64,000 nucleotides of DNA. It comes from a virus. Its lineage: Duplodnaviria > Caudoviricetes. The position numbers were made by a program, and so were the translations under genes. The stretch covers positions 165,449 to 229,448 of IMG/VR virus record IMGVR_UViG_3300010346_000241. One strand, written 5' to 3'. The notes beneath the pieces are model-generated. The model had not been told where the DNA came from. It saw only the letters and a list, made by a program, of their open reading frames with translations, and searched no databases. Of this stretch, positions 46,590 through 56,057 are shown piece after piece (positions within the stretch are counted from its first letter, which is position 1; each line of letters starts with the position of its first letter).

Positions 46590-48320
46590 TCAATACTTGT
46601 TGATATTGAGATTAGACATCTGGAACTGGTTAGCAGTAACCATCAGTGAGATGATCTTTGAGATACTGTTGAGTACACAAATATCAGTATCGATAGAGGA
46701 GAGAACGTTCTCACCCTTCTCACCAGTTCTTACATCGAACGGACAATCCTGTTCAAGGGATTCGATAACCTTACCCTCAGGATCATCCATATATCTGTAG
46801 AGATGCTCAGAGATTTCCTTATATGCTTCATAGAAGCACTTAACGATTTCCTCCTTGAGAGAACCATCGTCGAGCGATACATCCATGAGAGCCTTGAATG
46901 CTCTGAGTCCTTCGAAGTTAGCACCGTAGCCGACACCCTCATTTACTGCTGAACGGCAGTTGAGAACAGCGTCTTCAACAAGGTCTCTTACCTGATCTCT
47001 GTCAGCGATAGTGATACCGCCTACGTAGAGTTCTACCATGTTACCGAGAAGTGAGTTTTTCTGCTTCTTGTACTGATAGATCTTGAGAGACTCGTTATGC
47101 TGCTTCTCGAGCTCAGCGATACGAGCATCGAGATCATTCAGAACTGCATTGAAGACGTCTGTATAAGTACCATCTTCATTCTTGTAGTTCTTAGGATCGA
47201 TAAGCTTTGTAGAGAATGCACCAGACTCTACGCAGCCTGCAGTACCATACCACTCCCATACATTCTTAACTGAAGGAGCAGTGCCGTTCTTCTGGTCTCT
47301 CGCTTCAGCTTTAGCGTCGTCATACTTATTGATAGTAGGAACTCCGCAGAGATTGAGTATGTTCTTCAGATATACCTTATCAGTATCCGTAACACCAGTG
47401 ATGATGTTGAGCGGGATAGTGTTAGGAAGGTTAGCCTGAGTGAACTTAGCACAGTAGTTCATTACAACCTCAAGAGTACGAGCATAGTCTCTTACGATCT
47501 TAGGAGCAATGATAACTGTAGGAATGATCTGAGGAATCTCATTGTTGTTAGGACGATTGCTGTTCATCTCATTGATCGGATTGATGATGTTGTGAGCAAT
47601 GATTGTATCAAACAGCTCGCCGTAGTTTACTGTATCAATAGGATCTTCGAAGTAGTAGATACGAGGATTCTCAAGTCTGTTTACAGACTTTTCAGGCATG
47701 TTGATGAAACATGCATCGTGGTAACCACAGTCGAAGAACATGCCGTCGTATGTCTTACGAACGAACTCCTCTCCAGAGCCAGCCATAACGTCGATGTATG
47801 CATTAAGACCAAGGTCTTCGTGAACCTTAACGATCTCTTCTGTAAGCTTCTCATCATTGTTTGTAGAGATGAGTGAGATCTTGCGGATATCGTCAATGGT
47901 AACCTCTCTGCCGTGAGCCTTGATAATAGTAGATGCAGCATCTACTACTTCCTTAAGAGCTCTTACGATATCTGCAGGGGGAGTTTTTGAGAAACGCTCA
48001 TCGATTTTTTCAGTGAGCTTCTTGAATACGAGATAAGAAAGGATAGTAACAGAGGTTGTAGAGTCGCCGACTCTCTTAGCTTGTGCTCTTGTTTCCTCTT
48101 CGATATCTGCAAGAACTGCCTGTTCGATCTCACCGCCGAACTTGATTGACTTAAGAATTGTATGACCATCCTTAGTGTAACGAGGATAGCCTTCTTTCTT
48201 GTACTGGATAGTGTTTGAACCATAAGGTCCAAATGACTGAGAAAGATAATCGTAGAGAGCTTCAAGTGTTTCGAGCTGAACTCTTCTAAGGACATCCTTC
48301 TTGACTATATTGCTTGTCAT
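46590..48320 (-). CDS. groEL: Phage-encoded GroEL-like chaperonin
   Basis: SFGPYG, TKDGHTIL, VGDSTTS, YVGG, VEDAVLNCRSA..EGVGYG. Confidence 0.9.
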   Translation of the reverse strand: MTSNIVKKDVLRRVQLETLEALYDYLSQSFGPYGSNTIQYKKEGYPRYTKDGHTILKSIKFGGEIEQAVLADIEEETRAQAKRVGDSTTSVTILSYLVFKKLTEKIDERFSKTPPADIVRALKEVVDAASTIIKAHGREVTIDDIRKISLISTNNDEKLTEEIVKVHEDLGLNAYIDVMAGSGEEFVRKTYDGMFFDCGYHDACFINMPEKSVNRLENPRIYYFEDPIDTVNYGELFDTIIAHNIINPINEMNSNRPNNNEIPQIIPTVIIAPKIVRDYARTLEVVMNYCAKFTQANLPNTIPLNIITGVTDTDKVYLKNILNLCGVPTINKYDDAKAEARDQKNGTAPSVKNVWEWYGTAGCVESGAFSTKLIDPKNYKNEDGTYTDVFNAVLNDLDARIAELEKQHNESLKIYQYKKQKNSLLGNMVELYVGGITIADRDQVRDLVEDAVLNCRSAVNEGVGYGANFEGLRAFKALMDVSLDDGSLKEEIVKCFYEAYKEISEHLYRYMDDPEGKVIESLEQDCPFDVRTGEKGENVLSSIDTDICVLNSISKIISLMVTANQFQMSNLNINKY

Positions 48321-49056: not shown

Positions 49057-49569
49057 TCATTTTACAGTTATGTAAAGCTGATACGATTGAGACTCTTCAG
49101 ATATATGAGTTATTGTACTGTGCTGTAAGAAAGCATCAATTTTATCTGGCTTGACATCTGATAGAACTTCATCGTAAGCATGGTCTACTCTTACATATGA
49201 TCTTGTATGAAGCATACTGTCGTTATACACTTCAAAGTCGTAATGATCGTACACACTACCAGCTATACTTTCTATAAAGTCTATGAAGTCAGATAATGGT
49301 CTTCCTACGAAGTTGGCATTAAGCTGATCTTCATTCTCTTTAATGTATATAGTAATCATGTGCTTTTCAGTTGAATCTATAGCAACAACTTCACTTTCGT
49401 TAAAGTAACTAAGAATCTTTTCATCTGCTATAGGCACTCCGTCCCATAACGTGTTGGTGCAAAGGTCTTCTCCGTACATTCTTTCATATGTACTGATGAA
49501 GAAGTATACCTCTTCATTCTCTTTACCCTTACATGGTTTGAGTAAAGGGATTACGTCTTTAACTTTCAT
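49057..49569 (-). CDS. Hypothetical protein
   Basis: 170 aa ORF with SD AGGAGG. Confidence 0.7.
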   Translation of the reverse strand: MKVKDVIPLLKPCKGKENEEVYFFISTYERMYGEDLCTNTLWDGVPIADEKILSYFNESEVVAIDSTEKHMITIYIKENEDQLNANFVGRPLSDFIDFIESIAGSVYDHYDFEVYNDSMLHTRSYVRVDHAYDEVLSDVKPDKIDAFLQHSTITHISEESQSYQLYITVK

Positions 49570-49581
49570 CCAATCCCTCCT

Positions 49582-50103
49582 TTAAGGTATATAGATATCG
49601 CCATGAGTTCTAGTAACTATCTGAGATAGATACTTTAGGCTTGTAGTTGTTATAGTCATCTCTTTGATTGTATCTATTATCTCTTCAAACTTGACCTTCT
49701 TAACCCTAACATAGAATCCAGATGATAATCCTGTATAGTAGAGTTTGGTGATGATGTAGTCGTCTGGATAGTATGGCACTTTAGTATCACCTTCCCAGAA
49801 GAATATATTTCTACGGTCTTCGTCATACAGCGATATAGTGTCATACTTATACTTCTCGTTCTTATGCATCGCCATGTACTCCATAAAGAACGTTATTGGG
49901 CATCCTTCGAATACAGAACAAAGTTCTTTGGTCTCACTATCGGCGAACCAATAGTGATGCATCTCTTTAAGTTCTTCGAACCTCTCGTTCATACATAGAT
50001 AATCGACGATCTCATCTCGTGTCATACCCCTGTATTTACGCTTAAGTTCTTCCTCTCTGGTTAGAGGTTTTCTTTTGATCTTAGCGAGTATTCTCTTAAA
50101 CAC
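49582..50103 (-). CDS. Hypothetical protein
   Basis: Probable GTG start at 50103 after GGGGTG; hairpin 50129-50154 separates it from the upstream gene. Confidence 0.65.
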   Translation of the reverse strand: MFKRILAKIKRKPLTREEELKRKYRGMTRDEIVDYLCMNERFEELKEMHHYWFADSETKELCSVFEGCPITFFMEYMAMHKNEKYKYDTISLYDEDRRNIFFWEGDTKVPYYPDDYIITKLYYTGLSSGFYVRVKKVKFEEIIDTIKEMTITTTSLKYLSQIVTRTHGDIYIP

Positions 50104-50158
50104 AGTATCACCCCATTTCAAAGAGAAGGATAGGGATGTTTTCACATCCCTATCGCTA

Positions 50159-50989
50159 TTATACGTCCATTATAAGGTCCTGGTAGTCCTCTACTTCTTC
50201 GATCTTGTCACTGTTACGACCAAATGAAGATGATGTAGACTCATTGCCGTTGTTTGAGAAGAATGCTGATGCATTAGACTTTCTCTTGTATCCACTTCCA
50301 GTGTCGATGCCAAGGTTCTCCTGAATGCTTGTCAGCTTGCTGATGATGCTGTTGAATGAGAACCTTGTAGCGTCAACTACTGTAGCTGCAACCGCACTGC
50401 TGTTGCCGTTAACGTACTGAGCAATTGTATTGGTAAAGATATCATAATCAAGGAACTTTGTGTACTCATAGTCCTTGGTGAAGTCTGTACCACCCTTATA
50501 GTCGATGATACCGAAGTTATCCTTATCGGGTGTAGTCTTGAACTGATATCCGATTTCAGAATCGATGTTACCCTTCTCATCAAGGCTCTTTACGATAAGG
50601 AAGAGTCCATTACCGTCCTGTCCTTCGAACTCCTCTGCGCCGTTGGTTACATAGATGATAGAGTTACCTGCAGTAACACCTACGTTAACGTAAGCATTTG
50701 GATCCTTTCTGAACTGTCTGAGATAATTGAGGAAGAGAGCAGCTCTGGTGGGAGTGAGGTATACTTCTATGGAGTTATCCTTATCGAAGCTGTAACCTCC
50801 GTCTGCACCCTTCTTGATGGGGGTGATTGTTATCCTGAGCATTCCCTTCCAGAATGAAAAGGATACGGATGTAGGATCTACAGTAGAGTCAAAGTTAGAG
50901 ATCCTGATGTTTGAGTAGGTTGTAGGAGAGAAGTCGTTCTTCTTTCCATTTGAATTGCCCTTGTTATAAGAGTTATTACCGAGTGGCAT
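50159..50989 (-). CDS. Putative single-stranded DNA-binding protein
   Basis: Aromatic beta-rich core (VSFSFWKGMLRITITP), N/S/G-rich linker, acidic C-terminus EEVEDYQDLIMDV; start revised to ATG 50989 (SD AAGGAGG). Confidence 0.5.
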   Translation of the reverse strand: MPLGNNSYNKGNSNGKKNDFSPTTYSNIRISNFDSTVDPTSVSFSFWKGMLRITITPIKKGADGGYSFDKDNSIEVYLTPTRAALFLNYLRQFRKDPNAYVNVGVTAGNSIIYVTNGAEEFEGQDGNGLFLIVKSLDEKGNIDSEIGYQFKTTPDKDNFGIIDYKGGTDFTKDYEYTKFLDYDIFTNTIAQYVNGNSSAVAATVVDATRFSFNSIISKLTSIQENLGIDTGSGYKRKSNASAFFSNNGNESTSSSFGRNSDKIEEVEDYQDLIMDV

Positions 50990-51074
50990 ATGTGTGTCCT
51001 CCTTTGTTTTAAGTGTCCATATAGGCACTGATTATATATATGTAGGGGATATCGTAAAAGTTAGCTATATGGGT

Positions 51075-51084
51075 TGTATATCAT
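51075..51084 (+). promoter_or_regulatory. Early-type promoter
   Basis: TGTATATCAT-N4-GTG. Confidence 0.55.
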
Positions 51085-51088
51085 TGTA

Positions 51089-51266
51089 GTGTATGAGGAT
51101 CACGATCGAATCTTCATGCACCTGACTGTAAATTATCTATGATCCCATAAGGAGAACGGGATCTCATGCAGCAGGTAAACAAAGGGTGTATCCCAAAGGG
51201 ATGTCTCGAAACGAGACTACATTAGCTCAGCATGACGGCCGTCAACCGTGTAGCACCTACTGAGCA
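51089..51266 (+). ncRNA. Ornate structured 5' leader RNA
   Basis: Stems GTGTATGAGGAT/ATCTTCATGCAC, ACCTG/CAGGT, GATCCC/GGGATC, ATCCC/GGGAT, GTCTCG/CGAGAC, GCTCAG/CTGAGC. Confidence 0.65.
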
Positions 51267-51272
51267 TGAATT

Positions 51273-51803
51273 ATGAAAACTAATAACAACAAGGCTGAAT
51301 CTACACGAACATATTCAACTGAAGAGATCTGCAGCAAGATTGCAGAACTCTTCGTTGAACAAAATGAATACGGCGACATCATGATCGCTGGTATTCCAGA
51401 TTCAGACTCCATACTAGACTCAAGGAAATTCTGCAAGGCTGTTGTGACCTTTGTAGAATCTGTAAAGTCACTCAACCCATATAATGCACTTTCAGCTCTG
51501 ACGTACATTGTGAGCTGGGATGAGGTAGAACACCTTGTCAACTGGCTGGGCAATACTAGACCCACTGACTGCGAGTGGTTAAACGCCATAAAGTGGGAAG
51601 ATGTCGTCTTTGATGACTATCTTTTAAACACTGTATGGCAAGGAAAAAGATTCAATAAAAGAGCCGCTGTTCTGCTTTATGGTATGGTATCATACCTGGC
51701 AGATACAGGGTTCGACCTCCGCATATACAACTACAGAGGTGATATCGCGTCGTTATCTGTAGCAACAGAAAACGCAGCTTACTTCTTTAAAGAAGATTTT
51801 TAA
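51273..51803 (+). CDS. Hypothetical protein lacking an adjacent SD sequence
   Basis: 176 aa with phage-like codon usage; upstream sequence CTACTGAGCATGAATT has no SD. Confidence 0.7.
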   Translation: MKTNNNKAESTRTYSTEEICSKIAELFVEQNEYGDIMIAGIPDSDSILDSRKFCKAVVTFVESVKSLNPYNALSALTYIVSWDEVEHLVNWLGNTRPTDCEWLNAIKWEDVVFDDYLLNTVWQGKRFNKRAAVLLYGMVSYLADTGFDLRIYNYRGDIASLSVATENAAYFFKEDF

Positions 51804-52007
51804 GACAGCTTCTCTGCCGAGGCACAAGGTAGATGAAGCAGCTTAAAACTAGTGTCTACCTGCAGGTTTCCAAATGACCTGTAGTCTCCTTTCCGTGGCG
51901 GCTAGGCTGTCACAACTTTACTTAGTATCCAGCGATATGCGGCATACATGTGGTTCATACTCCACATAGCATATCGCTGGTACTCCTCTTCTAAGAGGTT
52001 ATTTTTT
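51804..52007 (+). ncRNA. Ornate structured 3' RNA domain and terminator
   Basis: Stems GACAGCTT/AGGCTGTC, CTGCC/GGCGG, AGGTAGATG/TGTCTACCT, GCAGGTT/GACCTGT, CCAGCGATATGC/GCATATCGCTGG; CCTCTT/AAGAGG + T run. Confidence 0.65.
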
Positions 52008-52075
52008 CTTGTCGAACATCTCCGTAAAGAGGGCTATTGAACCCACTGTATCAAACTATAGAAAGAGGTGTTACT

Positions 52076-54436
52076 ATGGCAAGTACAATCGAACTAGTTC
52101 TTGAAGATGAAGTCGCTAAAGAAGACCGTACTTATACTGGCTCTAACGAATCAGAGATCTTCTACGATGGAACAGTTCAGACTAATCAATACATTGATCC
52201 TTCACAAATGAAAGCTAAGAAGACTATACCCTTTGTTCCACCTAGTCAGAACAAGAATGTGATGACTGATCCTCTTACAGGACAAAGGTCTACTGTCTAC
52301 TTTCAAATGAATACTAAGAACCAAAGCTTTCTGGATATGCACTACTACCTGAAAGCTATAGGAATCAAGAACAACAAGTTCTTCCTTATACTCTTTGATA
52401 AGGATCTTGCTAATGTAGATCCCTATGATCCTAAGCTTCCTCTGTTCATGAAACAGAAGATCTTTATAGAGTGTCAACGTAACTTCTTCTATTATATCAG
52501 AGAAGTCGTTAGAGTACAGAGCCAAGGTGGACCTTACGTCAGGTACAAGCTTGACAGAGGAAACCTAGCCCTTAACTTCTGCTTTACACTGTCTCTTAAT
52601 GTATACCATGAACAGCCTCGTCAGACTGGTAAAACAGTAGGATGTGAAGTATGGTATTCATGGATATACAACTTCGGTTCTCGAAACGCTAACATGGTCT
52701 TCCTTAATAAGAAGCTGGACGATGCTAAGAGAAACCTTGACGATATGAAGAAGATTATACAGGCTCTGCCGTCTTACCTTAGATTCGACCAGGCATTTGG
52801 TCAGAACGGTAAGAAGCTTAAAGCTCGTAATACTGTATCTTATGTACAGCACCCAATCAACTTCAACAAGATAGAAGCACTCGCTAGAGCAACCTCTAAG
52901 ACTGCTGCTATCTCCCTCCTCAGAGGTCGTACTATCACTAACTGTTGGCTCGACGAGTCTGCATTCTTCCCATTCCTTGGAGAGTCACTCTCTAATGCTA
53001 TGCCTGCCATGACAAGAGCCTTCAGAAACTGTCGTGATAATGGAGCTCCTCATGGACTTTGTCTTACATCTACACCTGGATTTATCTCTGATGAGTTCGG
53101 CAAGTATATGTATGATATGAGAAGCAACATGACTCCGTTCTCAGAACTCTGGTATGACCTTTCACTCCAAGAGCTTACCAATATACTCAACTCCAACGAG
53201 AAGAGTATCTTCGTACATATCAAGACTACTTATCAGCAGCTTGGCTATTCAGAAGAATGGTTCAAAGAGCGTTGTCGTGAACAAGAGTACAAGTGGACAG
53301 ATATCCGTAGAGAGTTCCTTCTCGAGTGGGCTATGTCTGCAGAGAACTCTCCATTCACAAAAGAACAGCTTGATATCGTTGGTAGATTCGTTAAGCAACC
53401 TAAGAAGCAAGTCTATGTCGGAGCATTCCTTCTCAATGTATATGAAGAGCTCAGACCAGGTATTGCTCCTATCGTTGGATGTGACGTTGCTGCTGGTTAC
53501 AATAAGGACTCATCTGCTATGAGCATAACAGACTCTACAACGTCTAAGCTTATGGCAGACTTCAACTGTAACTATATCTCTACTATCGACTTCGCTAGAG
53601 TCATCTATGATGTGGTAACCAACTGGATACCAAATGCTCTGGTAGTGGTCGAGCGTAATGGTGTAGGTACAGGTGTACTAGCAAAGCTTCTCAAGTCTAA
53701 GATCAAGTCTAATCTCTACTATGAGATTAAGGAGAGGACTATAGAAGAGAAGTATGACGGAGTCCATATCAATCGTAAGAAACAGCTCACTAGAGTCTAT
53801 GGACTCGACAACACTAAGATAGTCAGAGAACAGCTTATGGATCTTCTCATGCTTAGAATGGAAGACCATAAGGACAAGTTCGTATCTCCTATCATATATG
53901 AAGAGCTGAAGAACCTTGAGGTGAAGAAGACTGGTAGAATCGATCACTCTGCTCAGAGTCACGATGATGCAGTATTCTCTTATCTTCTTTCACTCTATCC
54001 TCTGTACTACGGTAAGAACGTTACAGAGAACTGGGGTATAAGAATACCTAACCTCCAGACTGAACAGCATGAAGCTGAAGAGCCTATCTTCCAGAGCTTC
54101 GAGGCTACAGAGGGAATCAATATCTCTGGTGACCTTGAGGGAATGCATGGTAGAGTAGAGCAGCAGCTTAAGGATCTGGATGATGGTACTATGCTCTATA
54201 AGGACTGGTTAGAGCAGCAGAGACAAGAAGACCAAGAGGCTCTTCAGAAGATTCTCTCTACTCCAGTAGGTAGAAAGGCATACAGCCAGAAGTTCAACAA
54301 GCCTATAGAAGAGCTGGAGGACCCCGCAAACCAGTACAGTATGCTTGGCACTATAGACCAGTTCTATAAGGATATGAATGATCCATACAGCAGTGTGGAT
54401 GATGATGAAGAAAACGACTTCTACTATGACTATTAA
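52076..54436 (+). CDS. terL: Terminase large subunit
   Basis: Walker A PRQTGKT, Walker B CWLDE, LTSTP, nuclease motifs GCDVAAG, VERN and HDD; start revised to ATG 52076; late-type promoter at 52015-52026. Confidence 0.92.
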   Translation: MASTIELVLEDEVAKEDRTYTGSNESEIFYDGTVQTNQYIDPSQMKAKKTIPFVPPSQNKNVMTDPLTGQRSTVYFQMNTKNQSFLDMHYYLKAIGIKNNKFFLILFDKDLANVDPYDPKLPLFMKQKIFIECQRNFFYYIREVVRVQSQGGPYVRYKLDRGNLALNFCFTLSLNVYHEQPRQTGKTVGCEVWYSWIYNFGSRNANMVFLNKKLDDAKRNLDDMKKIIQALPSYLRFDQAFGQNGKKLKARNTVSYVQHPINFNKIEALARATSKTAAISLLRGRTITNCWLDESAFFPFLGESLSNAMPAMTRAFRNCRDNGAPHGLCLTSTPGFISDEFGKYMYDMRSNMTPFSELWYDLSLQELTNILNSNEKSIFVHIKTTYQQLGYSEEWFKERCREQEYKWTDIRREFLLEWAMSAENSPFTKEQLDIVGRFVKQPKKQVYVGAFLLNVYEELRPGIAPIVGCDVAAGYNKDSSAMSITDSTTSKLMADFNCNYISTIDFARVIYDVVTNWIPNALVVVERNGVGTGVLAKLLKSKIKSNLYYEIKERTIEEKYDGVHINRKKQLTRVYGLDNTKIVREQLMDLLMLRMEDHKDKFVSPIIYEELKNLEVKKTGRIDHSAQSHDDAVFSYLLSLYPLYYGKNVTENWGIRIPNLQTEQHEAEEPIFQSFEATEGINISGDLEGMHGRVEQQLKDLDDGTMLYKDWLEQQRQEDQEALQKILSTPVGRKAYSQKFNKPIEELEDPANQYSMLGTIDQFYKDMNDPYSSVDDDEENDFYYDY

Positions 54437-54482: not shown

Positions 54483-54492
54483 TATATATTAT
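54483..54492 (+). promoter_or_regulatory. Early-type promoter
   Basis: TATATATTAT-N4-GTG. Confidence 0.65.
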
Positions 54493-54536: not shown

Positions 54537-56057
54537 ATGAAACGCAAAGTAACAATAGCAGCGATCATACTGATCACATTCTGTGCTCTCAGAGGAGTAC
54601 AAATAACCTGGAACAACCAGGTTGTAGCAGACTTTGTAGCTAATGGATATAGCAACAGAGTCTTTATATCTCTGATTCTTGTAAATGTAGCATTCTTTGT
54701 CATAGATGCAGTAATGCGTATCTGCGGCAAGGCTGTGAGAACTGGTATCGGAAACGATAACAAGATGTCATTGATAAAGAGAGTTCTTAACTCTTCCATC
54801 AAAGATATCAATTCAACCACTGTAGGCAAGATCAATTCTGTTGTTGATAAGATATCAGATCTTAAGGGACATATCTTTGTCACTACTGCTACGTCTCTAG
54901 CTACTTTAATTCCATTTTTCTCTGCTGTGTTTAAACTCAGAGAACATCCTGTGACTATAGTGATTCTATTTACTTGTGCTATAATAACAGGATTCATATT
55001 CTTCTTTGAGGAGAGAATCTTTAAGTTCTCTGAGAAGGAGACGAAAGCCCAGGCTAAGTTCAGTTCCGTCACCATAGATGGACTGAACAATATAAAGACT
55101 ATAAAATATCTTCGTAAAAGTGCATTCCTTATCAAATCGGCAGAGGAGTCTCAACATGACGCTTATAAGTACAGTGTCAATATTCCTAAGAGACTCTTCG
55201 ATACATTGGGTATGGCAATACTTAGTATACCTACCATAGTATCAGTATTTTTGTTCAGGGAAAACATGGATGTAGTAGCATTCATGTTTATGAACGAATG
55301 GGTCATCTACAATGGTCTCGGCACTATAGTGGATGTAATAGATCTAATCGTTCAGTTAAAAGCAAATGAGAAGATAATAGAGAGTCTTGATGGTACTTCC
55401 GATACTGATATAAAGATCGACATGCCTGAAAGGTTTAGAGTCCATGGTCAGTTTGACCATGGTAAGAACTCACCTCTCTTCATCGTTGACGTGGAGATAA
55501 AGCGCTGCGTGCGCTATCTCATAACAGGTGAGAAAGGAGAAGGTAAGTCTTCATTTGCTAATGTGCTTGTAGGAGCCATTACTAATGATTGGCTCATCGG
55601 CCCTCCAAAAAACCTGAACACATATTATGTGTATCAGGAAACAGAACTCCTGAATGATAGTCTGAGAAACAATATCACTTTTGGTGATAGACGTATCTCA
55701 GATCAGGAGATACTTAAGCTCTTCGAAGAGCTTAATATGTTGAAATGGTATAAGACTCTTGATGAGGGCCTTGATACCATTGTAGGAGAGAAAGGCAACA
55801 AACTCTCCAGTGGTCTCAAACAGAGTATCAATCTCATCAGAGCAATCGTTGAGATGAGACGAAGACCAAATAAGTTATATATCTTTGACGAGATCACATC
55901 TAATATGGATGATGATTCGCGTCATAGAGCTATCAACCTCATTGACAGAGAGTGCCATAGTACACTCGTAGTGATAAGTCATAACGAAGGGTTTGACAAG
56001 ATCTGTGGTCATCACATCAATGTGGCTGATCATAAGATCATTCTTGAAGAGGAATAA
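54537..56057 (+). CDS. ABC exporter, fused permease and ATPase
   Basis: Multiple TM helices; Walker A GEKGEGKS, Q-loop VYQE, signature LSSGLKQ, Walker B IFDE, H-loop VISH. Confidence 0.9.
   Translation: MKRKVTIAAIILITFCALRGVQITWNNQVVADFVANGYSNRVFISLILVNVAFFVIDAVMRICGKAVRTGIGNDNKMSLIKRVLNSSIKDINSTTVGKINSVVDKISDLKGHIFVTTATSLATLIPFFSAVFKLREHPVTIVILFTCAIITGFIFFFEERIFKFSEKETKAQAKFSSVTIDGLNNIKTIKYLRKSAFLIKSAEESQHDAYKYSVNIPKRLFDTLGMAILSIPTIVSVFLFRENMDVVAFMFMNEWVIYNGLGTIVDVIDLIVQLKANEKIIESLDGTSDTDIKIDMPERFRVHGQFDHGKNSPLFIVDVEIKRCVRYLITGEKGEGKSSFANVLVGAITNDWLIGPPKNLNTYYVYQETELLNDSLRNNITFGDRRISDQEILKLFEELNMLKWYKTLDEGLDTIVGEKGNKLSSGLKQSINLIRAIVEMRRRPNKLYIFDEITSNMDDDSRHRAINLIDRECHSTLVVISHNEGFDKICGHHINVADHKIILEEE

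Follow-up and report, generated by a model that had tools for sequence, protein, structure and literature searches.

The window analysed here, a stretch of DNA 64,000 nucleotides long, is the final 64 kb of a 229,448-bp virus record (IMG/VR record IMGVR_UViG_3300010346_000241). The record is the 229-kb genome of an uncultured AR9-like jumbo phage from gut or rumen, an assignment made because its terminase large subunit (TerL) is 35% identical to those of BpSp, PBS1 and AR9, and because the metagenome contigs of its relatives are 229-233 kb long. The window carries a self-contained unit of ~917 nt on the + strand (51091-52007), consisting of a predicted early-type promoter, a 182-nt leader, a 176-aa open reading frame (ORF176) that lacks a Shine-Dalgarno (SD) sequence, a 3' untranslated region (UTR) of ~200 nt and an intrinsic terminator. 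The features of the unit, in order, are as follows:

51075-51091, + strand: early-type promoter-like motif, TGTATATCAT-TGTAGT-G, with a predicted +1 at G 51091; invariant in relatives.
51091-51119, + strand: helix P1, the 5'-terminal hairpin (13 pairs, 7 of them compensatory; 96.9% of alignment cells paired).
51120-51176, + strand: domain P2, with outer helices 51120-51124/51172-51176 and 51127-51130/51167-51170 and an apical hairpin 51141-51145/51159-51163.
51166-51225, + strand: upstream ORF (uORF) of 19 aa, present in the window but not conserved as coding sequence.
51187-51221, + strand: three-way junction of P3 (ATCCC/GGGAT, 51190-51194/51198-51202) and P4 (GTCTCG/CGAGAC, 51203-51208/51212-51217), closed by UGU/ACA (51187-51189/51219-51221).
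51225-51265, + strand: helix P5, GCUCAG/CUGAGC (51225-51230/51260-51265), with an inner hairpin CGG/CCG (51236-51238/51246-51248).
51273-51803, + strand: ORF176, 176 aa, an SD-less orphan and hypervariable allele (dN/dS 0.06-0.15).
51814-51888, + strand: module 1 of the 3' domain, a pseudoknotted three-way junction of Ha (GAGGC/GUCUC, 51819-51823/51884-51888), Hb (51827-51835/51853-51861) and Hc (51862-51867/51877-51882).
51886-51894, + strand: anti-SD-like C/U-rich stretch CUCCUUUCC, invariant or nearly so; its first 3 bases are the 3' end of Ha and the remainder is the Ha-Hd linker.
51895-51913, + strand: hairpin Hd (5 of 6 counted pairs compensatory).
51929-51980, + strand: long hairpin He, with an outer helix of 12 bp and an inner one of 6 bp (7 pairs compensatory); kept in all alleles, including L021.
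51985-52007, + strand: intrinsic terminator Hf, CCUCU/AGAGG (hairpin 51985-51998) and U-run.

The ratio of nonsynonymous to synonymous divergence (dN/dS) of ORF176 is ~0.1, and on this pattern of substitution it is judged to be a real gene under purifying selection. The 15 known members of its family share 27-87% amino acid identity, and the first ~13 codons are A-rich and hypervariable. For ORF176, dS is 0.7-3.2 and dN 0.10-0.27, compared with 0.12-0.23 and 0.002-0.006 for the flanking TerL and 276-aa genes, which are 96% identical in DNA and 99% identical in protein among the relatives. This divergence between near-identical flanks indicates that ORF176 and its 3' domain are old alleles exchanged between otherwise near-identical genomes; the alleles are far older than the genome that surrounds them. 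Such a pattern is typical of accessory host-interaction genes, and the allele pattern points to host interaction as the probable function of ORF176.

The protein itself gave few clues. ORF176 had no match in Pfam, PHROGs, NCBIfam, PADLOC or the ESM Atlas, and a sequence profile search of the PDB returned one chance row only. Comparison of the unit and of ORF176 with 50,697 phage records by blastn and tblastn gave no match, and a search of viral contigs for related loci found none. Structure prediction with AlphaFold2 (AF2) reached a mean predicted local distance difference test score (pLDDT) of 53 with 10 close homologues and of 86.3 with 15 diverse homologues (predicted TM score, pTM, 0.83), giving a mostly helical model. 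When this model was compared with the PDB and BFVD by Foldseek, by VIA-align and with atlas structures, nothing rose above noise (best Z 5.1, E 0.36, TM 0.34).

The start of ORF176 is unusual for this genome. Pairing of the 22 nt upstream of the AUG with a Firmicute-type anti-SD sequence amounts to -1.9 kcal/mol, against a median of -12.0 kcal/mol over 185 ORFs of the genome and -2.4 kcal/mol at random positions; only 5 of the 185 ORFs are as weak. The missing SD, first pointed out in the initial annotation of this DNA, is therefore confirmed. So is the position of the SD-like AAGGAG (51149-51154) in a hairpin loop far upstream, where it forms the loop of GAUCC(C)/(G)GGAUC in domain P2; this loop would pair with the anti-SD at -8.2 kcal/mol. 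Homologues with readable flanks, down to 27-33% protein identity, all keep the SD-less start and the leader, and all keep at least part of the 3' domain, with covariation in both flanks.

The multi-stem leader that had been proposed from the letters of this one genome is borne out by its relatives. Folded from its predicted first base, the leader (51091-51272) has a z-score of -3.0, and a 50-pair structure was examined for covariation on 15 sequences. In this alignment 95.8% of cells are paired and 19 of the 50 pairs show changes on both sides, that is, compensatory changes. The resulting covariation score is 0.337, compared with 0.183 for shuffles and 0.03-0.09 for slid controls. The apical stem of P2 covaries (GAUCC/GGAUC, GGUCUG/CAGACC, GACUC/GAGUC) around a fixed loop, GGAGA (51151-51155), which is invariant in 15 of 15 sequences. 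Both arms of the three-way junction covary as well, with compensatory changes at 3 of 5 pairs in P3 and 2 of 6 in P4, while its closing UGU/ACA helix, also part of the proposed junction, never varies. In P5 the inner helix occurs in three covarying states (CGG/CCG, CGC/GCG and CCU/AGG), the outer helix is invariant, and the 3' end lies 8 nt ahead of the AUG. Overall the leader is 77-95% identical among relatives, which is not above the genome background, and the differences are concentrated in compensatory pairs. Besides the GGAGA loop, two further segments of the leader are invariant, AAAGGGUGUA and, in P5, GUGUAGCACCUACUGAG (51248-51264). An alternative pairing, GGGUGU (51184-51189) with GCACCU (51253-51258), appears in the minimum free energy and RNAalifold structures; both of its strands are invariant. 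Long-range pairings offered by RNAalifold, between the start region of the 276-aa gene and the leader and between CCUUUC and the SD of TerL, cross transcript boundaries and were dropped.

Three properties bear on how such a leader could be read. There is no U-run 3' of P5 and the leader extends to the AUG, so it is not a transcription attenuator and any regulation would be at translation. In both RNA domains 8.5% of the paired cells are G-U, a share that, taken with the orientation of promoter and terminator, assigns the RNA to the + strand. Finally, the 19-aa uORF that had been noted behind the SD-like loop does exist in the window, but neither its frame, its length (9-37 aa) nor its start codon is conserved: the AUG is replaced by AUU, AUA, CUA or CUG with the helix preserved, and the start is gone in five relatives (L018, L041, L045, L016 and L021). 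A conserved leader peptide was rejected on these grounds. A second small uORF at -72 (20 aa) has the same length in 7 of 9 relatives; it too was rejected, as its region, free of indels, changes in the manner of a covarying RNA and several relatives lack the start codon.

A covariance model of the leader (R1) finds exactly two copies in the genome, the ORF176 leader (211 bits) and a second copy 82 kb away (134660-134858 of this genome, G000; 150 bits). The second copy has its own early-type promoter motif, TATATATTCT-AATAGT-G, which agrees with the early consensus of the phage at 9 of 10 positions, and in both copies helix P1 begins exactly at the predicted +1. The P1 helix of the second copy is a different one and its P2 and P5 stems covary, while the GGAGA loop, identical in both copies, and the P5 core are kept; within GUGUAGCACCUACUGAG the only difference is one U-to-C change. 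Past the ATG there is no conservation between the two copies, nor between divergent ORF176 alleles. Furthermore, the ORF behind the second copy is likewise SD-less, with an anti-SD pairing of -2.2 kcal/mol, and is unrelated to the ORF176 family (hhalign probability 0.2-0.5%). Its weak likenesses to ORF176, an N-terminal Y-S/R-T-x-x-I and a C-terminal 'RAA...Y.GDI', were considered as a sign of homology and rejected on this hhalign result and on the lack of nucleotide similarity past the ATG. When the second cassette is compared among relatives, nucleotide similarity is lost no more than 5 nt from the ATG and returns at the terminator.

In the present genome the second-cassette gene (G000:C1:134856-135754; L058 1057-1955), which lies ~30.6 kb ahead of the start of the window, is broken: 34 aa are followed by an in-frame TGA, 105 aa in the same frame and a frameshift into a 159-aa ORF. 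It is intact in a relative (G002), with 295-298 aa (P0017/P0018), so that the broken form could be a pseudogene, an assembly error or a case of recoding.

The presence of the leader ahead of an unrelated SD-less ORF means that it is not a partner specific to ORF176. R1 has no match in AR9 or BpSp, and a scan of viral and metagenome collections with the 17-nt leader core gave, outside the phage clade, only chance matches without the upstream helices. The leader belongs to a small, undescribed RNA family and appears to be a portable promoter-plus-leader module for SD-less accessory early genes. The cassette is called accessory because the second one, leader and gene together, is missing from a complete 231.8-kb relative.

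A multi-helix element with invariant junction and loop nucleotides beside covarying stems, placed directly upstream of the start codon and common to two unrelated genes, is also what might be expected of a riboswitch or protein-responsive sensor that gates translation of the two early accessory genes on a host metabolite or factor. The leader matches no known riboswitch family, however, and covariation supports no mutually exclusive alternative structure. The consensus fold leaves the region of the start codon unpaired, and the leader occurs in one narrow phage clade only, as judged from its absence in AR9 and BpSp and from the core scan. We regard a sensor of this kind as very unlikely.

The initial annotation was also right in describing a multibranched 3' domain of ~200 nt behind ORF176. 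The segment 51801-52010, which begins at the stop codon and ends at the terminator, folds with z = -6.2. A structure of 38 pairs was assessed for covariation with 13 sequences: 96.7% of the alignment cells form pairs, 16 of the 38 pairs show compensatory changes, and the score of 0.394 compares with at most 0.07 for slid controls. A pseudoknot joins CUGC in the 5' flank (51814-51817) to GCAG in the Hb loop (51838-51841). It is 100% paired, 3 of its 4 pairs covary, and among relatives CUGC/GCAG is replaced by GGGG/CCCC and GGC/GCC. Hc and the terminator covary when the sequences are folded singly; in the most divergent alleles Ha and Hc are either lost or changed. The covariance model of this domain (R2) finds one copy per genome and detects the module behind every ORF176 allele, though weakly (23-26 bits) in the two most divergent ones, where it is reduced.

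Neither domain was matched when 50000-53000 was searched on both strands with all 4227 families of Rfam 15 (cmscan, E<=10). The chance rows, DLEU2_3 (E 0.8) and L20_leader (E 9.5), fall outside the + strand RNA domains, and no model of group I or II introns, ROOL, GOLLD, raiA, riboswitches, ribozymes or exoribonuclease-resistant RNAs (xrRNAs) matches the locus. The 3' domain is accordingly described here as an undescribed folded RNA, absent from Rfam and supported by covariation.

One view takes the 3' domain as a functional stable RNA: the pseudoknotted junction, which begins 11 nt past the stop codon, would stop RNase J1 from degrading the transcript 5' to 3', in the manner of a flaviviral xrRNA, and leave an RNA of ~190 nt, in which CUCCUUUCC would serve as an anti-SD seed on other mRNAs. 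The covarying pseudoknot does connect the 5' flank with the loop of Hb, the first hairpin of the junction, the domain spans the interval from stop codon to terminator, and the C/U-rich stretch, which lies partly in a helix strand and partly in a linker, varies little or not at all. Moreover, in an in vitro test with the purified enzyme, a flaviviral xrRNA blocked bacterial RNase J1 (PMC5760640), and the closest cultured relatives of the phage infect Bacillus, whose RNase J1 is a 5'-3' exoribonuclease (PMC5737220). Against this, neither an xrRNA nor any other Rfam family matches, and the topology is unlike that of known xrRNAs, with a pseudoknot made to a hairpin loop and a ring closure that is putative. 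Ha and Hc, which belong to the junction, are those missing or altered in the most divergent alleles, and most of the domain is explained by ordinary 3'-end stabilising hairpins. We therefore think a decay-resistant functional RNA unlikely; 3'-end protection is the plain reading of the 3' UTR.

The C/U-rich stretch CUCCUUUCC is complementary to SD-like sequences, the leader loop AAGGAGA included, and this raises the question of contact between the two UTRs. As in icaR and hbs, the 3' UCUCCUU (51885-51891) might pair with the loop AAGGAGA (51149-51155) and so control translation or RNase access. The complementarity is perfect over 7 nt and Firmicute precedents exist in icaR (PMC3868564) and hbs (PMC5737220), but both sides are invariant and hence show no covariation. 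In relatives whose loop is AUGGAGAG, only 5 nt still match and nothing compensates for the loss, and GUCUC doubles as the 3' strand of Ha. The second leader copy keeps the loop, and its cassette has no such 3' domain, so that the complementarity is dispensable there. The chance that UTR-UTR pairing operates at this locus appears slight, smaller even than that of a sensor.

The initial annotation had read the locus as a structured RNA with an embedded cognate protein. In such a system the ORF176 protein would bind its own leader, its 3' domain or both, for autoregulation or to form a ribonucleoprotein. The 3' module does occur with all examined alleles of the ORF family, including those at 27-38% identity, and is single-copy in each genome; invariant single-stranded segments in both flanks are candidate protein sites. 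The idea is weakened by the leader that also serves an unrelated ORF, and by the confident ORF176 model, in which fold and family searches recognised no RNA-binding fold, nor any other fold or family. Proteins as little as 27% identical beside invariant RNA sites are not the pattern expected of a co-evolving pair, and the most divergent alleles have only a reduced 3' domain. A cognate pair is thus, in our estimate, distinctly unlikely, somewhat more so than a decay-resistant RNA. More specific forms of the earlier idea found no support: a type III (ToxIN-like) toxin-antitoxin system was rejected as there are no tandem repeats in 50900-52200 and no PADLOC or Pfam match for ORF176, and a group I intron or mobile RNA element as the unit lies between divergent genes, not inside one, with no match to an intron model or an endonuclease family. 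A role for the uORF falls with its lack of conservation. The part of the earlier interpretation that fits best is riboregulated or internal ribosome entry site (IRES)-like translation.

The limits of the unit are drawn from its transcription signals. From ~20 intergenic sites the early-type motif of the phage, an extended AT-rich consensus, was derived as gT-TATATATTAT-N6-G; examples lie in the window at 54483, 34758, 29739(-) and 21503(-). Most of the early-type transcripts predicted from these sites have a stable hairpin whose first base is the +1, perhaps a general device for 5'-end protection. The ORF176 promoter motif fits the TATATATTAT consensus at 8 of 10 positions plus the G at +1, and transcription probably starts at G 51091. 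That the unit is early, as had been suggested, is plausible from this promoter motif. At the other end the unit closes with the G+C-rich hairpin CCTCTTCTAAGAGG (51985-51998) followed by the U-run TTATTTTTT; alleles of group 2 have another terminator hairpin, CUCGC/GCGGG, at the same place and before the same T-run. Adjoining features are:

51031-51044, - strand: promoter of the divergent 276-aa gene, TACATATATATAAT, with 1 mismatch to the phage early motif.
52015-52026, + strand: TerL late promoter of AR9 type, AACA-TCTCCG-TA, fitting AACA-N6-TA/G (PMC5312081); invariant in 13 relatives.
52076-54436, + strand: TerL, terminase large subunit, 786 aa (phrog_32359, 4.8e-52; phrog_2, 5e-41).

In AR9, early promoters have the form AAATATATATTAT-N6-G and are used by the virion RNA polymerase (RNAP), and late promoters have the form AACA-N6-TA/G, with the last base as start site, and are used by the non-virion RNAP (PMC5312081). 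The late promoter of TerL starts 8 bases past the ORF176 terminator. Terminator and late promoter together make ORF176 a separate unit and TerL a separate late unit. Upstream, 50990-51090 is nearly invariant in 9 relatives, and TACATATATATAAT can also be read as a TACA-N6-TA late-type variant and overlaps a sigma-70-like TTTACG-16-TATAAT. The leader of TerL (52027-52075) is nearly invariant in relatives, with a 10-nt indel, CACTCATTAC, in about half of them.

The two neighbours named in the initial annotation fared differently. TerL is confirmed, at 35% identity to the TerL proteins of the Bacillus phages BpSp, PBS1 and AR9; by this comparison the nearest cultured relatives have Bacillus as host, and the host of the present phage is probably a Firmicute. 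The 276-aa neighbour (50162-50989, - strand) had been labelled a single-stranded DNA-binding protein (SSB), a label for which there is no support in Pfam, PHROGs or NCBIfam. It was also considered as a homologue of AR9 g120, which has the equivalent position; the two show no similarity and the idea was dropped. The cassette is for this reason not claimed as an insertion relative to AR9, which merely has no ORF there. A second variable accessory slot adjoins the cassette at 49057-50145 (- strand), where relatives that are otherwise ~96% identical differ in the 170-aa and 187-aa genes that lie between those of 231 aa and 276 aa: some have them, some lack them and some have others in their place. 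The region is flanked by a GroEL-like chaperonin gene (46590-48320, - strand; PF00118, phrog_5725) and an ABC half-transporter-like gene (54537-56057, + strand; ABC_membrane plus ABC_tran). A scan of the window for tRNA and tmRNA genes found none.

The position of ORF176 directly upstream of TerL, its size (176 aa, about right) and its mostly helical model would be those of a small terminase subunit. The gene has its own early-type promoter motif, however, and a terminator and the TerL late promoter intervene. No terminase-small match was found in Pfam or PHROGs, and fold searches gave nothing clear. The hypervariability of ORF176 beside a TerL conserved at 99% is not expected of an essential packaging partner, and in AR9 and BpSp no small-terminase gene is annotated immediately upstream of TerL. 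A small terminase is the least credible of the readings considered here, and we give it next to no weight.

On balance, we consider it probable, though well short of assured, that the locus is a cassette carrying an accessory early gene, in which translation without an SD is controlled or made possible by the leader and the mRNA is stabilised or processed through its 3' UTR. The proposed events are as follows. Transcription from the early-type promoter would start at G 51091 and produce an mRNA that opens with the 5'-terminal hairpin and continues through the five-domain leader. Most likely the leader controls translation in cis and takes the place of a local ribosome-binding site. One possibility is that the 30S subunit is recruited by the invariant GGAGA, which, displayed in a loop, would be a remote or standby SD; the alternative is that a trans-acting factor common to both cassettes co-regulates them with the leader as its operator. 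Both a remote SD and a trans-factor operator fit the leader data, which do not separate them. The 3' UTR is passed on together with the ORF allele, and its most likely role is to protect the transcript towards the 3' end or to process it there.

Several points weigh against this scheme. The transcription start, the early timing, the processing, the mechanism of translation and the role of the 3' UTR are all deduced from sequence. The promoter motif departs from the early consensus at 2 positions, and for the virion RNAP of AR9 it is reported that some single promoter changes are not tolerated (PMC5312081). The GGAGA loop lies ~120 nt from the AUG, and any proximity of the two in the folded leader is putative. 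The invariant single-stranded segments would suit a binding site for a protein or ligand equally well. The relatives fall into 2 or 3 deep lineages, so that the compensatory changes represent few independent events, and part of the conservation of the leader could reflect its use as a recombination anchor in genomes otherwise 96% identical.

A bolder combination would make the leader a phage counterpart of an IRES, with SD-independent initiation through the GGAGA loop ~120 nt upstream and portable for swappable early accessory genes, and the 3' junction the first phage RNA that stalls RNase J1, leaving a fragment like a subgenomic flaviviral RNA (sfRNA). That both halves should hold together strikes us as improbable, to about the same degree as the decay-resistant RNA considered by itself.

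The structured regulatory RNAs of jumbo phages are almost unexplored, and this locus provides two covariation-supported motifs absent from Rfam, one of them a portable leader of two unrelated, SD-less and hypervariable early genes. If the leader does drive or gate SD-independent initiation in an SD-dependent host, it would constitute a new route of bacterial translation initiation and control and a compact expression part. The old alleles in near-identical genomes mark ORF176 and the second-cassette gene as candidate host-interaction or counter-defence genes, and the pseudoknotted 3' junction makes the question of xrRNA-like decay blocks in bacteria and phages directly testable with RNase J1.

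Among known systems, AR9 is the closest in its transcription signals. Both phages have two promoter classes, with an identical late class (AACA-N6-TA) and an early class in which TATATATTAT-N6-G is close to AAATATATATTAT-N6-G (PMC5312081), and both have a divergent gene with an early-type promoter upstream of TerL. They differ in that no ORF separates that early gene from TerL in AR9, that neither AR9 nor BpSp has an R1 match, and that the TerL proteins are only 35% identical.

Like a flaviviral xrRNA, the 3' domain has a three-way junction and a pseudoknot through which the 5' flank is tied into the fold, stands at the start of a viral 3' UTR and could give rise to a stable 3' fragment (PMC5760640). 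The pseudoknot partner in the phage RNA is a hairpin loop instead of a junction strand, there is no Rfam match, and any ring topology or decay intermediate of the phage RNA is putative. The icaR mRNA of S. aureus and the hbs mRNA of B. subtilis share with the phage unit a Firmicute-type mRNA with long structured UTRs at both ends and a C/U-rich 3' motif complementary to an SD-like 5' sequence (PMC3868564, PMC5737220). In the phage the complementarity is 7 nt long with both sides invariant, the 3' side lies partly in a helix, the SD-like partner is 120 nt from the AUG and not at a ribosome-binding site, and the second locus of the leader has no such 3' UTR.

For the leader itself the nearest comparison is tisB, an E. 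coli toxin mRNA in which ribosomes are loaded remotely through a structured leader (PMC7708055). There is no sequence or Rfam relation between the two. The tisB mRNA has a local, sequestered ribosome-binding site and a single-stranded standby site that works with protein S1 (PMC7708055), whereas the phage leader, as read from its sequence, has no local SD, its upstream element is the GGAGA hairpin loop, and the host is probably a Firmicute. What they have in common is a long, highly structured 5' leader with a proposed ribosome entry element ~100 nt upstream of the start and a defined RNA structure (PMC7708055).

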